Of a stretch of DNA of 64,000 bases, positions 7,192-32,531 are shown piece after piece. Position numbers and translations under genes: made by a program. Every line of letters begins with the position of its first letter. Position 1 is the first letter of the stretch. The stretch covers positions 32,001 through 96,000 of IMG/VR virus record IMGVR_UViG_3300031772_000001; one strand, given 5' to 3'. The stretch comes from a virus. The notes beneath the pieces were generated by a model. It saw only the letters and a list, made by a program, of their open reading frames with translations. It had not been told where the DNA came from and made no database searches.

Positions 7192-7512
7192 TTACTTTGA
7201 TCCCACTCTCTGCTTTCCGCACATAGGACAGAATTTTACACCGTTATCTGTTGCTGTACCTTCAGAAAAACACCACTTATCCCCACACTCCGTATCATAA
7301 GAGTCTGTTGTAGAGTCGTATATCCAATGACAAGTCTTCTTTGGCTTCGCACACACCTCTCCTTCCACTATGATCTCACCTCTTGGACGAACTGGAGGTG
7401 GAGGAGGTGGAGGAGGTGGAGGAGGTGGAGGAGGTGGAGGAGGTGCCGGAACTTTCTTCATTCGCTCCAATTTCTCTGGTGACGGTAAGGATCGTGGCGC
7501 GTTTGTAGTCAT
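7192..7512 (-). CDS. Hypothetical protein with poly-Pro tract and C-terminal FCPxCG zinc ribbon
   Basis: Long (CCT/CCA)n run at about 7393-7446; YDTECG...FCPMCG. Confidence 0.65.
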   Translation of the reverse strand: MTTNAPRSLPSPEKLERMKKVPAPPPPPPPPPPPPPPPPPVRPRGEIIVEGEVCAKPKKTCHWIYDSTTDSYDTECGDKWCFSEGTATDNGVKFCPMCGKQRVGSK

Positions 7513-7949
7513 TTCTCACCCACTACCTTCAACAAATCATCCATTGTCTCTCTGTCAGCAACAACTACAAAAAGACGCAAAAGATGGTCTACAGCATCTT
7601 TAAGTTCTACCCACTTAGCTTTGAACTTAACATAAAACTTCTCTGGTAACTCATACTCAGAATAGTTAATCTGCTTTTGCATATCAAAAATCTTTGTCTT
7701 AACAACAGCTTCAACATCAGAAACAAGTGAAGGTGAAACTACTAAACGAACTCTTCTATTCCAATACTCTACCGCTTCCTTCTCAGAGTAAACCAACCCA
7801 CCACACGTAGCTCCACAATCACACTGCACTCGAAAATCACCAAGATCGTCAAGCTCCTCGTACATCTCAGGAGTACCGCCACAAAAAGGACAAGGCAGTA
7901 ACCCCTCTACTGGATGGTCTGTCTTAACACTCATTGAAACTCCTTCCAC
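7509..7949 (-). CDS. Lar-family restriction alleviation-like protein
   Basis: LLPCPFCGG...C..CGA...A...WNRR. Confidence 0.75.
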   Translation of the reverse strand: MEGVSMSVKTDHPVEGLLPCPFCGGTPEMYEELDDLGDFRVQCDCGATCGGLVYSEKEAVEYWNRRVRLVVSPSLVSDVEAVVKTKIFDMQKQINYSEYELPEKFYVKFKAKWVELKDAVDHLLRLFVVVADRETMDDLLKVVGEK

Positions 7950-8714
7950 ACATAACCATGATTCTCTGTGTCAGGATCTACCTTCCACTTCTCATGTTCT
8001 AACCTACCATCATCCTGGTCTTCATTCTCTCTTATATCAGGCTCTTTACCTGCCCCATGAAGAAAATTCTCGTCATCCTCGTACCCCATATACTACGTTC
8101 TTTCTCTCTCAAAGGCACACAAGCAGTTTACATAAGACACTGAGTTATATCCTTTAGAACGAAATATCGGCCAGAACTTCTTACCATCAAACTCTGTTAT
8201 CTGTTTTATCTTCTTTGGTATGTGCAACTCCCCATACTTTTCACCTTTTGGTATAGGAACACCATTCACCTCACACTGAGTATACCTCACCGCTTTCATG
8301 TGCAAATAGCGACGTTCAAACTCCTGCTTAGGCATCTAACAGCATTCTCCTCCAACGCTCAAGTGCAGCTACGAATTCCTCTTTTTTATCTTTACCTCTT
8401 CCACAAGCAACATCTGTCCCGTTAATAAAAACCACTCCCCACGGGTCAACGTCAAATAATTCCATGACTCTCTTAATCAACTTTTCGGGGTCTGTTGGCA
8501 ATGCTTCAAAGTATGATTATCAAACATGTACCAATAATTTCTTTTTAGAGGACTCTTAGCCTTGCTAACCTCACGAATGAAAAACTTTGCCTGCTCAAGA
8601 CCTTTAATGAAAGAGTCCTGATCAATACCCTTTGGGGCCATATTAGCTTTACACCACTCAATTTCCTTATCTACAGCATCAAGATACTCCTGCATATTCT
8701 TCCTCCATTATTTC

Positions 8715-8918
8715 TCAACCTATAGTGTCAAGCCGTGTTTTGGGCTTTAGCTGTTGTACGAAGTGGCGCAAATTCCGCAGTGTCCGCCACGCCTTATCCA
8801 ACAGCGTGTACCAATGATAAACTATGAATGCACGCGGGAATCCTGACCAGAAATGCCACTTACCGCAATACGGATAGTTACAGAACGATTTACTTTCAAT
8901 AATGAAACCTCTCCACAT
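8715..8918 (-). CDS. Cassette H hypothetical protein
   Basis: Only plausible ORF between junctions 8975 and 8719. Confidence 0.5.
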   Translation of the reverse strand: MWRGFIIESKSFCNYPYCGKWHFWSGFPRAFIVYHWYTLLDKAWRTLRNLRHFVQQLKPKTRLDTIG

Positions 8919-8968
8919 AAACTTCTACTTTCCGGCGCGGCCTATAAATTCAGGCTTTGCGCCATTTT

Positions 8969-9092
8969 GTACAACGTCTACGCAATGGGCGATAGTTTGC
9001 CCCTACAATTACACTGGCCTACCACGACCACATGTATGCCATCGGTGTCCTCAAAATAATGAGGGCAAATTTCGGCCCTTGCGGTGTTGGGT
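8969..9092 (-). repeat. attC-like site, cassette G
   Basis: CCCAAC-AC-CGCAA-GGG...CCC-A-TTGCG-TAGAC-GTTG with one extrahelical base. Confidence 0.8.
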
Positions 9093-9214
9093 GCCGGTTT
9101 GTCAACCACCACGCGGTTGGCCGCGCTCCAACCGATCTCCGCACTCACCATATCTATCTGATAATCACCAGGCCCTTGCGTCTTCCACCACTCACGGAAT
9201 GTCTTCGCGGCCAT
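8978..9214 (-). CDS. Cassette G hypothetical protein
   Basis: GGAGG RBS, start MAAKTF; reads into the attC-like site. Confidence 0.6.
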   Translation of the reverse strand: MAAKTFREWWKTQGPGDYQIDMVSAEIGWSAANRVVVDKPAPNTARAEICPHYFEDTDGIHVVVVGQCNCRGKLSPIA

Positions 9215-9241
9215 ATCACCTCCAAAGTTGACAAACTGGCA

Positions 9242-9367
9242 TCCCAACGTCTTGCGAAACGTGCGCCGTGCTACAGATTATAGTGGCACACCATACACGC
9301 TTCGCCGAGCGAATACCGCCCTGCACGCTCACCACAGTTCGGACATGGCGCACTTTTGCTGTTGGTT
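9242..9367 (-). repeat. attC-like site, cassette F
   Basis: CAAC-AGC-AAAA-GTGCGCC...GGCGCAC-G-TTTC-GC-AAGAC-GTTG. Confidence 0.8.
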
Positions 9368-9486
9368 GTCTGTTGAGCGAGTACAGCGGTTTTCAGAGTT
9401 TGCCATGCTTCATCCGCAAGAACGACATTACCTACATGTATAGCACAATTTTTCTCGATAGCATCAATAGCCTCGATTGGCGTCAT
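9271..9486 (-). CDS. Cassette F hypothetical protein with C-terminal zinc ribbon
   Basis: AGGAG RBS; CPNC...CMVC encoded inside the attC-like site. Confidence 0.65.
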   Translation of the reverse strand: MTPIEAIDAIEKNCAIHVGNVVLADEAWQTLKTAVLAQQTTNSKSAPCPNCGERAGRYSLGEACMVCHYNL

Positions 9487-9522
9487 GGCATACTCCTATA
9501 ATAAATTTTAGAGCGAAATTGC

Positions 9523-9582
9523 AAACAACGTTCCGGCAAATTGCCGAAGTGTGCATCACATTTTGGCATTTGCCTGTTGTGT
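9523..9582 (-). repeat. attC-like site, cassette E (60 bp)
   Basis: CAAC-A-GGCAAAT-GCC-AAAA-TGTG-ATG-CACA-CTTC-GGC-A-ATTTGCC-GGAAC-GTTG. Confidence 0.85.
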
Positions 9583-9780
9583 GCTGTTTTTTGCGCCACC
9601 GCTGCTTTCAGAGGTTGGCGGGGATGGAACGAGCATCCAATGCGTTATTTTGCAATTATACTCGCAATGGCCAGCAATAAAATCCTGTGCGTGAATAGTC
9701 TCGATACTGCCGTTGTCAAAATGAACTAATATCGGGCCATCGTAATCCGGGACAACACCTTCACCTTTTTTGTACCACAT
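9556..9780 (-). CDS. Cassette E DUF551-like protein
   Basis: AGGAGG RBS; MWYKK...ITHWMLVPSPP. Confidence 0.65.
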   Translation of the reverse strand: MWYKKGEGVVPDYDGPILVHFDNGSIETIHAQDFIAGHCEYNCKITHWMLVPSPPTSESSGGAKNSTQQANAKM

Positions 9781-9817
9781 AGCCAACCTCCTATAATTTG
9801 AAAGCGCAAAAAATTGC

Positions 9818-9950
9818 ATACAACGTTTTGCTCTATTGCGACGTGCGTGACAACCACTTGTCAACCTTATTACGGTAGCACTCCGAACAACGCGGAGATT
9901 TGGTCCGCACAAAAACGCACTCTCCGCATGGCGTAATAGCGCTGTTGGGT
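9818..9950 (-). repeat. attC-like site, cassette D
   Basis: CCCAAC-A-GCGCTATT...AATAGAGC-AAAAC-GTTG. Confidence 0.7.
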
Positions 9951-10090
9951 GCCGTGGAATGAGCATCCGCCAGATAGTGGCCACAGTCGCTGCACAAAGA
10001 ATAGTTGCTGTCCCGAACTATGCATACATCTCGCTTAATGCAATCAAGTTTTTTGTGGCCACCTATAACCTCCAAGCGAATGAATGGCAT
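9833..10090 (-). CDS. Cassette D Cys-rich hypothetical protein
   Basis: Several CxxC pairs; start uncertain. Confidence 0.45.
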   Translation of the reverse strand: MPFIRLEVIGGHKKLDCIKRDVCIVRDSNYSLCSDCGHYLADAHSTAPNSAITPCGECVFVRTKSPRCSECYRNKVDKWLSRTSQ

Positions 10091-10228
10091 CCCAACGATC
10101 CGCGCTACTGGTTCCGTTGCTCGATCTCACGCAGAAAATCACAAAACCTCATTTTTTGCGCATCAGACCGAGAAGAAGACAATGCCAGTTTGCGCACGAG
10201 AGCAATGGCATCTATAGCGCTGTTGGGT
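10090..10228 (-). repeat. attC-like site, cassette C
   Basis: CCCAAC-A-GCGCTAT...GTAGCGC-GGATC-GTTGGG. Confidence 0.7.
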
Positions 10229-10329
10229 GCCGTTGTTGACAATTCCTCCGGTTTGGAGGCGCAGCGATCGCACGAACCTGCCGGTATGCCGTGCTGACAC
10301 CACCCGTTGAGCAATACGCTATCATTCAT
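10105..10329 (-). CDS. Cassette C hypothetical protein
   Basis: GAGGAGG RBS; MNDSV..CQHG..CDRC. Confidence 0.6.
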   Translation of the reverse strand: MNDSVLLNGWCQHGIPAGSCDRCASKPEELSTTAPNSAIDAIALVRKLALSSSRSDAQKMRFCDFLREIEQRNQ

Positions 10330-10368
10330 TTTGCGCCTCCTCGGCATATCGACTTGTCAACTATGGCA

Positions 10369-10496
10369 TCCCAACGTCCGAGCAATGTACGCAGTGCTAC
10401 TGCTTGTGACAAATCGGAACTCCGGTACAGCAACAACTTTTGATAGGATACTTGCAGCTCGCATACAGAGAGCATTGCGTACTTGCTTTGTTGGTG
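10369..10496 (-). repeat. attC-like site, cassette B
   Basis: CCACCAAC-AA-AGCAA-GTACGCA...TGCGTAC-A-TTGCT-CGGAC-GTTG. Confidence 0.8.
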
Positions 10497-10609
10497 GATG
10501 TAAATCTTTCCACCATAGCGTTCTGTGCGGCATTCCAGACGTTGCTATACTTCTCCATATCTCCGCCGCCGCCAACGTTGCTCCACCACTGCTCAAATGT
10601 CATTTCCAT
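10397..10609 (-). CDS. Cassette B hypothetical protein
   Basis: TFEQWW...WNAA; Cys-rich tail inside the attC-like site. Confidence 0.6.
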   Translation of the reverse strand: MEMTFEQWWSNVGGGGDMEKYSNVWNAAQNAMVERFTSTNKASTQCSLYASCKYPIKSCCCTGVPICHKQ

Positions 10610-10643
10610 GCCGCACCTACAATTCCAAAGAAAGGTTTATTTC

Positions 10644-10721
10644 CACCAACGTTTGCGCAACAGCCGAAGCCGCTACGCCCCCTTGCTACGCTTACGCGGT
10701 TTTGGCTTTGCGCTGTTGTTT
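10644..10721 (-). repeat. attC-like site, cassette A
   Basis: CAAC-A-GCGCAA-AGCC-AAAA-CCGC...GCGG-CTTC-GGCT-G-TTGCGC-AAAC-GTTG. Confidence 0.85.
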
Positions 10722-10936
10722 GTTGTTGCCGTGCGCTCAACTGCTTTCTGCGCGGCGGCGATTTCGCTACGTAACGATTCAATAGCTTTGTCAACGCCGT
10801 GACCAAGGTTGTCCTTTAACATACTGTCGAAAAGCATAGAATACACTTGGTCGGTGATAATGTTTTCGGCGTTGACATAAGGATATCCAAACTCACGCAT
10901 ATTGCGGATAGCCGCAGAAATCAATTTATCTCGCAT
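10673..10936 (-). CDS. Cassette A hypothetical protein
   Basis: AAGGA RBS; MRDKLISAAIRNMREFGYP. Confidence 0.65.
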   Translation of the reverse strand: MRDKLISAAIRNMREFGYPYVNAENIITDQVYSMLFDSMLKDNLGHGVDKAIESLRSEIAAAQKAVERTATTNNSAKPKPRKRSKGA

Positions 10937-10987
10937 ACATTCCTTTCCGCCGCGCCTATAATATGGTCGCACGGCAATTGCAAACAA

Positions 10988-11275
10988 CTACCTCAATAAC
11001 GCACTCTCAAACCGTAGACATTTCTCTTTTTCTCTCCTTAATTCCTTTACTTCCCGAAACTTACTTGCATTATCAACCTCTAACCAAGTAACCCTCTGTT
11101 GTAACCTGTCAATCTCTTTTCTTAACCAAGCAACCGCATCCGAAGTACCATTACGCTTATTATCCTTACTCTCACTCTCATTCTCACTTGTAAGTCTTTT
11201 TGCAATTCCGAGTAACCAAGTGTTATCCCTGAGATACACACGCGAATTTACAACAACATCAATGCCCCGCACCAC
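10988..11275 (-). CDS. Hypothetical coiled-coil protein
   Basis: 95 aa; the G of its TAG stop is the G of the first cassette junction. Confidence 0.55.
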   Translation of the reverse strand: MVRGIDVVVNSRVYLRDNTWLLGIAKRLTSENESESKDNKRNGTSDAVAWLRKEIDRLQQRVTWLEVDNASKFREVKELRREKEKCLRFESALLR

Positions 11276-11510
11276 AAACCTCTTTCAATTCAACTCTCTT
11301 ATTCCATTGCGTCAAGGCAGGATAATGCATAACAACCCCACATCCACTACACTTCACAACCTGCTCATTCCCTACATCATTCTGTATCGACTCCCAATCT
11401 ATATACGCTTTCCCGCCACAAAAAGGACATGGAAGTAACTTCTTCTTGTCTCTATCGTTAATTAAACCTTCCCACATTTCAACCTCACAAAATAAAACAC
11501 TACCCACCAT
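11259..11510 (-). CDS. Lar-family restriction alleviation-like protein
   Basis: LLPCPFCGG...CSGCG...WNKR. Confidence 0.7.
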   Translation of the reverse strand: MVGSVLFCEVEMWEGLINDRDKKKLLPCPFCGGKAYIDWESIQNDVGNEQVVKCSGCGVVMHYPALTQWNKRVELKEVCGAGH

Positions 11511-31568: not shown

Positions 31569-32531
31569 CTATGCTGACAACCTACTCTTTGCCCAAGCAT
31601 AACTTCCCTTCTCACAATTCTCTCTTACTGCAAAAAGGGTTGACGTTTGACACAGAAAAGTGAAAAGGTTCACCCAATTCCACACTGAATCAAGTGAAGG
31701 TATCCCGGCACTCACAAGATTCTCTTCGTTTGACTTGATAGCCGCTCCCTTAACACGAGCATCCTTAATAACTCTACGAGGAATCATCTTTGCCTCTTCT
31801 GCCTTATCACACACCACCTCGACAGGCTCATCTACCTTCTTGGCATCAGCTTCCTCAACAAACTGCTTCATACCGGCACCATAAATATCACAATCCCTTG
31901 CACGGGCCTGAAGAACATCCGCAATGAATGTTGGTGTTGCGTTCTTTGTGTCAATCTTGTAGGTCTGGCAATGTGTAGCATTTATCAAGCCATTCTTACA
32001 GATTACACGATAAGTCATAAAGTCAGAACTGATTTTCCCGTAGTTGATGTTCGATACCCGAATACGCTGACCAACAAACATGTCCTCCCCAATCGGGTTA
32101 ATTTCCATACTCTTTGTTATGATCCTCAAGGAATCATCAACAAGAGGATCACCATAAATAGACCACACATCTTTTTCAAAAGGCTTAATCAAATCATTAT
32201 ACCGGAGGTACGGCTCCTGAATAGGCTGAATAAAGATAACCTGATTCGGGGAAGAAGGGTTCTTTCCTATACGGAATTTTGCATAATTCCGTCGAATAAA
32301 CTGCTCCTGCAAAAGCTGGTTAAACATCGGAAGCGTAAGTTCCCGCTGCAAACCTTTTGGAATATGTGACCACTTACACACATTCTTAACCGCCCTCTCT
32401 GAAAATACCCCAATACCATCAATCGCCAACGCCCCGTCAACTTTTGTAAAAGACTTGTTAGCCAAATCCACTTCCTCAACCGAGTCATCAATCCTCTCCA
32501 CAAGATCCACAAACTCTGGAGTACACGCCAT
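31569..32531 (-). CDS. DUF932-like protein (divergent)
   Basis: ISN-like segment, YRVICKNGL, W..VN..T. Confidence 0.55.
   Translation of the reverse strand: MACTPEFVDLVERIDDSVEEVDLANKSFTKVDGALAIDGIGVFSERAVKNVCKWSHIPKGLQRELTLPMFNQLLQEQFIRRNYAKFRIGKNPSSPNQVIFIQPIQEPYLRYNDLIKPFEKDVWSIYGDPLVDDSLRIITKSMEINPIGEDMFVGQRIRVSNINYGKISSDFMTYRVICKNGLINATHCQTYKIDTKNATPTFIADVLQARARDCDIYGAGMKQFVEEADAKKVDEPVEVVCDKAEEAKMIPRRVIKDARVKGAAIKSNEENLVSAGIPSLDSVWNWVNLFTFLCQTSTLFAVRENCEKGSYAWAKSRLSA

Follow-up and report, generated by a model that had tools for sequence, protein, structure and literature searches.

A probable integron-like cassette array in a large virulent-type phage, and a candidate Xer-type recombinase at the head of related phage arrays

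What is a row of integron-like cassettes doing in a phage that encodes no integrase, and which enzyme could have moved it? The question is raised by eight small genes residing at positions 8719-10988 (minus strand) of a 64,000 nt stretch of viral DNA, hereafter the window (positions 32,001 to 96,000 of the IMG/VR virus record IMGVR_UViG_3300031772_000001). The block is probably a genuine eight-cassette mobile array, part of an integron-like gene-capture system circulating among phages and served by a XerA-like recombinase. Judged by its sequence, it would be a recombinase-less member of a phage-borne integron analogue, an orphan resembling a CALIN (cluster of attC sites lacking integrase; Cury et al. 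2016, PMC4889954). The source record is 167,660 bp long, has direct terminal repeats and is estimated to be complete. The phage is large and of virulent type, carries T4-like replication genes (clamp loader, UvsX-like recombinase, ligase), and its DNA occurs in sediment metagenomes from several studies.

The cassettes, named A to H from the high-coordinate end, are co-directional, and the array is placed between two phage genes, in a part of the window in which all genes lie on the minus strand. The cGTTG junctions are found at 10988, 10650, 10375, 10096, 9824, 9529, 9248, 8975 and 8719. Each unit carries a single small open reading frame (ORF) of 67-87 aa and one inner CAAC box, and an imperfect hairpin spans the region from this box to the next junction. 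Eight units of these lengths, GTTG starts and hairpin ends had been reported in a preliminary description of the locus, and all hold to the base. Below, as in the rest of the text, a slash within GTT marks the crossover point, and RBS stands for ribosome-binding site.

8719-10988 (minus): whole array; GC 0.45-0.54 per cassette vs. 0.43 in the flanks; sole cluster of such elements in the 167.7 kb genome.
10985-10991 (minus): upstream insertion junction; the stop codon of phage gene 10988-11275 overlaps the first G/TTG, with no hairpin and no attI-like core ahead.
10651-10988 (minus): cassette A, 338 bp; ORF 10673-10936 (87 aa); inner box 10715-10718; recombination site about 10647-10726.
10376-10650 (minus): cassette B, 275 bp; ORF 10397-10609 (70 aa, Cys-rich tail encoded within the hairpin); inner box 10490-10493.
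10097-10375 (minus): cassette C, 279 bp; ORF 10105-10329 (74 aa); inner box 10222-10225.
9825-10096 (minus): cassette D, 272 bp; ORF 9833-10090 (85 aa, CxxC pairs); inner box 9944-9947; one mismatch in the lower stem.
9530-9824 (minus): cassette E, 295 bp; ORF 9556-9780 (74 aa, weak DUF551 / phrog_924 match); short site; inner box 9576-9579.
9249-9529 (minus): cassette F, 281 bp; ORF 9271-9486 (71 aa, zinc-ribbon-like tail within the hairpin); inner box 9361-9364.
8976-9248 (minus): cassette G, 273 bp; ORF 8978-9214 (78 aa); inner box 9086-9089; hairpin of the most widespread type in the family.
8720-8975 (minus): cassette H, 256 bp; ORF 8715-8918 (67 aa, stop codon spanning the terminal junction); inner box 8753-8756; short, degenerate terminal hairpin.
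8695-8722 (minus): downstream insertion junction; terminal G/TTG, followed directly by the RBS and start codon of phage gene 8477-8695.

The block differs from its surroundings in composition, being richer in GC (0.49 vs. 0.41-0.43), as had been noticed, and having a GC skew much weaker than that of the flanks (about -0.12 vs. about -0.3 to -0.45). The junction motif occurs four times in the genome, always within the array. The inner box had been described as complementary to the 5' end of its own unit rather than to that of the next one. Counted over 10 positions, own-end and next-end matches are 7 vs. 3 in cassette A, 8 vs. 2 in B, and 8 vs. 2 in H; in C, D and G the agreement between box and own end requires an indel of one base. 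In the 28 cassettes compared across all arrays, complementarity is better to the own end in 17, equal in 8 and better to the next end in 3 (Wilcoxon p = 0.0003), and the claim stands. The box of cassette F fits its own 5' end poorly (5/10); a second CAAC is found 4 nt upstream (window 9361-9375, minus strand), and the F homologue in phage array L226 carries the same duplicated box. Hairpin folding of the eight sites gave z scores of -0.5 to -3.6 relative to shuffled sequences in our own folds. Site H, alone among the eight, is near the shuffled level in its array form, and reaches -2.4 in its circular form. A second folding program gave -1.6 and -1.8 for sites B and E.

The same anatomy is found in 85 elements from 14 sources. 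Homologues of cassette proteins E and B, plus two sequence probes, were used to locate arrays of the same design, here numbered L208/L209, L223, L224, L225 (a complete 254 kb phage), L226-L228, L229, L230, L231, L233, L239, L251, L252, L253/L254 and L255. The backbones of these contigs are unlike in size, in gene content and in GC, hence the contigs are regarded as coming from unrelated phages. On the coding strand, a site is made up of YAAC, 1-2 unpaired nt (nearly always A first), a 6-bp stem, a further stem, a variable centre and the return stem; on the 3' side, usually one extra base, the 6-bp stem again, 4-5 unpaired nt (usually ending AC), and GTTR. YAAC and GTTR are invariant in the 85 elements, the pairing of the R boxes reaches about 9-12 nt, and site length ranges from 41 to 173 nt (median 118). 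The extra base resides on the 3', junction-side arm in 57 elements, is missing in 20, and falls on the 5' arm in 4, the remaining 4 having been placed by hand and left unscored. The spacer is likewise asymmetric, 1-2 nt on the 5' side vs. 4-5 nt on the 3' side. The hairpin geometry first proposed, a stem with one extra base, is thus retained in outline and refined in two respects, since the extra base belongs to the 3' arm, and the 5' spacer is only about 1 nt long. The bottom strand is the more stable one in 71 of the 85 elements (mean difference -1.68 kcal/mol, p = 3e-10).

Sites are kept in structure more than in letters. Between the B sites of the window and of L226, which are homologous, three pairs of a 7-bp stem have changed in a compensatory manner, and both sites adopt a similar fold. 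This comparison of homologous sites was used because bulged arms fall out of register in alignments, and MAFFT plus RNAalifold predicted no structure on ten short sites. No Rfam family matches the sites, and 14-15 nt seeds of junction and box gave about 200 single matches in viral contigs with no clustered elements, which is the chance level. In many sites of all lengths and from all arrays a CTTC(G) motif is found at the top of the 3' arm, and three unrelated short sites (L208:406-471, L224:4515-4579, L251:11085-11149) have an identical 11-nt loop; both may be further features contacted by protein. The last of the 16 cassettes of L226 (5826-6090) has a minimal site, with only a 4-bp stem between inner box and final GTTG, and this site may be decayed or hybrid.

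The density of elements is 2.05 per kb in arrays vs. 0.024 per kb in 3.77 Mb of other DNA, an 85-fold difference. In 59 of 76 cassettes the end of the ORF falls inside the site, the variable centre often encoding the C-terminal tail of the protein. Because ORFs run into the hairpins, the stems must be transcribed and could act in the mRNA, and one might regard them as features of the RNA or of chance, unconnected with DNA mobility, and the array as just a series of paralogous small genes. This is very improbable, as the window ORFs are not paralogues, the elements exceed the background by the factor given above, homology between arrays breaks at junctions, and composition does not resemble that of the backbone.

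Cassettes have leaders of their own. A conserved motif is located 27-30 nt past the junction in 36 of 84 cassettes, vs. 6% at random, and is not enriched elsewhere in the window phage. The order of parts (stem-loop, conserved leader motif, RBS, start codon) is that reported for PeSLs (PMC4122927), and both the T4-like replication genes of the window phage and the position of the arrays among small orphan genes would suit regulatory cassettes of this sort, stem-loop plus promoter units from the variable region of a T4-like phage, which homologous or illegitimate recombination would shuffle without a dedicated site-specific recombinase. Such an origin is nonetheless unlikely. Sigma-70-type sites (4 vs. 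5.3 +/- 2.0 expected) and terminator-like sequences (3 vs. 3.2 expected) are at background level, and no T run follows the hairpins, the longest around 37 tested junctions being of 2-3 residues. Sites similar in structure and not in sequence would be poor substrates for homologous recombination, and neither own-end complementarity nor a fixed bulge geometry has a role in a promoter-terminator unit. Arrays are also found in phages unrelated to T4 (P22-type portal, RecT), and array heads feature a recombinase and a conserved core, described below.

The window phage itself has no such enzyme. The lack of an integrase, first noticed in the window, extends to the entire 167,660 bp genome, in which no PF00589 match, no TIGR02249 match and no tblastn remnant of a tyrosine recombinase was found. 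Eight attC-like, though non-canonical, sites in a genome without any integrase resemble a CALIN, for which at least two attC sites with no integron integrase nearby are asked.

A candidate enzyme came from other phages. An 18-nt probe made from the commonest hairpin type, that of cassette G, led to L230, L231, L233 and L239. Run against one genome each of 185,579 bacterial and archaeal species, the same probe found nine matches, about 17 being expected by chance; eight of them have no elements, and the ninth lies in a phage-like 9.3 kb contig with nine elements (L239). This contig encodes a tyrosine recombinase of 288 aa, the end of which is 16 nt before the first junction. About 40 relatives (48-88% identity) were retrieved in a protein database search; a search of viral contigs by back-translated patterns of the recombinase found nothing. 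The enzymes of L251, L252, L253 and L255 are 88, 81, 55 and 51% identical, and the gene is in a phage genome every time. In five out of five cases with DNA (L239, L251, L252, L253 and L255; P0025, P0026 and P0054, having none, were left out of the count), a conserved attI-like core ending TAACTTA before GTTR follows within 4-16 nt of the recombinase stop codon, and a same-strand array follows, with 9, 13, 7, 4 and 3 detected elements, respectively. Of the elements beside recombinase genes, 36 have the coding-strand orientation and 4 the opposite one. The head enzymes measure 273-288 aa and are transcribed in the direction of the array. A control homologue, 38% identical, is a cellular Xer among housekeeping genes, with no elements around. 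A single attI-like 10-mer at position 121664 of the window phage genome was discarded, having neither array nor recombinase beside it, with 0.3 chance matches expected. Two of the contigs, L239 (CAIOJS010000371.1) and L255 (JARYGD010000200.1), are filed in bins of bacterial metagenome-assembled genomes, and look by gene content like phage contigs or prophages; if binning is right, the bins could assign a host.

The head enzyme finds its best match in XerA (4a8e), to which it aligns end to end, and all catalytic motifs (R, K, HxxR, H, Y) are present. It scores 149 bits against TIGR02249 (cut-off 265) and 202 bits against NF040815 (cut-off 220), and matches PF00589 (3e-35) as well as PF13495. 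It features 25 residues where VchIntIA has 61, and from the alignment it appears to lack the insertion specific to IntI, the gap falling in the catalytic domain where IntI carries I2. The gap probably coincides exactly with I2 as delimited by Messier and Roy (2001). IntI is defined by this alpha-helix inserted in its catalytic core, which docks extrahelical bases (PMC7790495).

These data bear on the origin of the cassettes, which may be thought to derive from an integron of the bacterial host, and to have been inserted and handled by a host IntI with I2. CALINs of virulent phages have been published, and phage attC sites are recombined by IntI1 (Qi et al. 2023, PMC9892861); a host origin would match those CALINs, the R boxes of the array (YAAC, GTTR) fit the attC consensus, and own-end complementarity, size range and bottom-strand stability resemble those of attC. 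In canonical attC, by contrast, the extrahelical bases are near L'', on the arm opposite the cleaved R', and the unpaired central spacer has 5-6 nt on each arm (PMC5027507); phage sites have the extra base on the crossover arm, and spacers of 1 vs. 4-5 nt. The 18-nt probe, which found arrays in viral contigs, met one phage-like contig only in the whole set of prokaryotic species, every array found is in a phage context, cargo is orphan or phage-type, and the adjoining enzyme in relatives has no I2. A canonical CALIN is thus improbable. As to the preliminary description, the logic of integron cassettes (G/TT crossover, own-end box, folded sites, no integrase) is preserved, and the assignment to canonical attC is not, the geometry being mirrored. 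The view that a host or distant IntI-type enzyme handles the cassettes finds no support, given the mirrored sites, the absence of the probe from prokaryotes but for that contig, and the Xer-type enzyme at array heads.

As the complementarity of the boxes is symmetric in itself, the ends of the arrays were used to read where strands would be exchanged. On the recombinase side, the core runs straight into a cassette body. At distal ends a hairpin is followed by G/TT and phage DNA (window 8719; L208 1668). The first window cassette opens at G/TTG with no hairpin ahead. Exchange would occur at the junction and not at the inner box, because all observed array ends fit. The alternative in which the plus strand is the top strand, and crossover occurs at the inner box, was rejected as the main pathway, for the same reason. 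Joining the two ends of the window array would restore the original target, made up of the stop codon TAG, TTG, and the RBS of the next gene. This joined-end target, as the upstream insertion junction itself, is similar to the final bases of the attI-like core in phages with a recombinase. Searches of viral contigs detected no relatives of the phage genes on either side of the array, and so no empty insertion site. The region found no match in 50,697 phage records by megablast and blastn.

Evidence of mobility comes from cassettes shared by different arrays. Homologues of cassettes B, E and F are found in L208, L223-L226, L229 and L239, in a different order and neighbourhood, homology beginning 0-5 nt from the junction. 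Cassette order is therefore not invariant in relatives. A homologue of the whole cassette B resides in L226 (74% over 283 nt, from 4 nt past one junction to 15 nt short of the next), and B-type bodies or leaders in L208, L223, L224, L225 and L229. The body of cassette E is 80% identical to one in L208, homology stopping 1 nt past the inner box; bodies of cassette F in L223 and L226 are conserved from junction to inner box, and are followed by unrelated hairpins; the hairpin module of cassette A is 78% identical to one placed behind a different ORF in L225. Hairpins are thus swapped, E bodies in two arrays, F bodies in three and B bodies in several being paired with unrelated hairpins. In bulk, breakpoints are only modestly enriched, 18% of alignments starting near a junction vs. 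6% at random; many of these alignments fell outside arrays or beside undetected elements, and individual alignments are clearer. Arrays stay at 45-55% GC even in a backbone of about 27% GC, which points to a shared pool of cassettes. The most extreme contrast among arrays is seen in L251:5142-13100, with about 50% GC in a 20-37% GC backbone.

Variation was also observed between near-identical phages. Sediment run X5, from another sample, holds a near-identical phage with the same backbone, covered about 300x on both sides of the array, and with cassettes H and A, and almost no cover of B-G. Contigs of this run end at 8976, 10647 and 10986-10988, which are junctions. Cassette A is a separate 342-nt contig at 740x, the sequence past it continuing as the start of a different cassette; cassette H, at about 300x, is located behind a different upstream hairpin, and a contig bridges the upstream insertion junction. 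Other small-gene positions of the window region vary too. The X5 phage has a 134-nt deletion within ORF 7509-7949 (window 7613-7748), and 632 other letters in place of 28 nt near window 11478-11507.

A mobile array of phage origin could work as follows. A cassette comprises a junction core (G/TTG with some 8 bases peculiar to the cassette), a short leader that has an RBS and a conserved motif of its own, one small ORF, and a structured recombination site. The inner box, in which YAAC is joined to a complement of the 5' end of the same cassette, pairs with the next junction as R stem; beyond this come the asymmetric spacer, the 6-bp L stem, usually one extra base on the junction side, a further stem, and the variable centre. 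Sites would fold in single-stranded DNA, the bottom strand being the more stable, and be exchanged at the junction against the attI-like core or another site by a compact XerA-like tyrosine recombinase without I2, putatively the one encoded immediately upstream of related arrays. The window phage may have gained its array at a secondary TAGTTG-type site between two genes. Three array-bearing phages have no recombinase, and action in trans is assumed for them; the window array would be served in trans only, e.g. by a co-infecting phage encoding the recombinase, or would be static. Cassettes, sites and cognate recombinase appear native to phages. A broader proposal, which we consider evenly balanced between right and wrong, is that phages of sediments and bioreactors keep an integron analogue of their own. 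In it an I2-less XerA-like enzyme, an attI-like core after its stop codon and attC-mirrored sites would spread self-expressed cassettes of about 280 bp among unrelated virulent phages, those lacking the recombinase would be served in trans at co-infection, and the inner box, as a second point of exchange, would swap C-terminal tails encoded in hairpins.

Several points weigh against a mobile array served by the head enzyme. Recombination is deduced from sequences and not directly observed, and at population level mobility is seen in contigs, not in reads. Homologous recombination between shared cassettes could yield part of the variation among arrays. Reassortment of bodies and hairpins at the inner box (cassettes E, F and B) is not explained by a simple exchange at junctions only; exchange may also take place, less often, at the inner box, or else some other process replaces the hairpins. 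Recombinase and array are linked by adjacency, in 5 of 5 contexts, and the enzyme could be a lysogeny integrase with its attP there by chance. Lastly, the recombinase is missing in the window phage as in two other array-bearing phages which are complete or nearly complete (G003 and G004).

The cargo gives few hints. The eight window ORFs are orphans except for the weak match of E quoted above, and Pfam, PHROGs and PADLOC leave nearly all cassette proteins unexplained. Larger cassette proteins of other arrays are orphans too, bar one HNH endonuclease. Distant DUF551-type relatives of ORF E were met in metagenomes, and set aside as not being in cassette contexts. A role of the cargo in host takeover or anti-defence is a guess.

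Among the neighbours, the minus-strand ORFs 7509-7949 and 11259-11510, which flank the array, encode small proteins with a common LLPCPFCGG-type motif, like the Lar restriction-alleviation family; in one relative, a Lar_restr_allev gene is found just upstream of the recombinase. In the product of ORF 7192-7512 (minus strand, 106 aa), about 20 prolines stand in a row without a break, and the C-terminus after them is rich in Cys and resembles a zinc finger.

In the current view, integrons belong to bacteria and have IntI with its I2 helix as their hallmark, and phage CALINs are read as stray bacterial cassettes. The enzyme at the head of phage arrays lacks the domain thought necessary for recombination of single-strand hairpins. 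If the reading proposed here is true, phages offer a natural experiment on the capacity of a Xer-type enzyme to drive an integron-like system, relevant to the origin of integrons, and a mechanism for the fast turnover of small orphan genes in virulent phage genomes. A route to the shuffling of protein tails would also be suggested, and a pool of hundreds of tiny phage accessory genes with recognisable boundaries, possibly host-takeover or anti-defence factors, would be defined.

Among known systems, the PeSL and PmSL units of T4-type phages (Arbiol et al. 2010, PMC2839356; Comeau et al. 2014, PMC4122927) come close in setting. They too are associated with small orphan genes in variable regions of large virulent phages, place a stem-loop and a conserved regulatory block before each gene, and are implicated in modular gene shuffling. 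Yet theirs are sequence-conserved terminators joined to sigma-70 promoters, whereas phage cassettes have neither T runs nor sigma-70 enrichment; cassette sites are conserved in structure only and complementary to their own ends, and relatives encode a dedicated recombinase.

Xer-type systems are closer in enzyme. The attP of the CTX phage is a folded single-strand hairpin with an unpaired centre, recombined by XerCD. In the pdif modules of Acinetobacter plasmids, Xer-type enzymes with no I2 move gene modules (PMC7399989). Such enzymes thus act on modules and on folded hairpins, and one of them could plausibly process the phage sites. In contrast with Xer modules, array sites are cassette-specific hairpins and not 28-bp dif-like sites, and the array enzyme is encoded by the phage at the array head, and is not the resolvase of host chromosome dimers. 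No description of a phage-borne Xer-type cassette system was found in the literature searched.

Integrons and CALINs share most with the phage arrays: cassettes of one ORF in one direction, an imperfect-hairpin site at the 3' end, YAAC and GTTR cores, which agree with RYYYAAC / GTTRRRY, with G/TT boundaries, an inner core complementary to the 5' end of its own cassette, and a more stable bottom strand (the attC bias is -2.12 in Nivina et al., PMC5027507). In both systems integrase-less arrays occur, and complete versions are headed by a tyrosine recombinase and an attI-like site. They differ in the enzyme, which in phage arrays is XerA-like, of 273-288 aa, devoid of I2, and encoded in the direction of the array by a gene that stops 4-16 nt short of the first cassette; no IntI with I2 stands beside the array either in the window phage or in its relatives. 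They differ also in the asymmetry of the sites, phage sites being mirrored with respect to attC, with extra base and longer spacer on the junction-side arm. Phage cassettes further feature R pairing of about 9-12 nt, a leader motif of their own, and ORFs which usually end in the site, and their pool has been seen only in phages. Relative to integrons, the phage system would, by its sequences, be a variant which combines integron logic with a Xer-type enzyme and mirrored sites.

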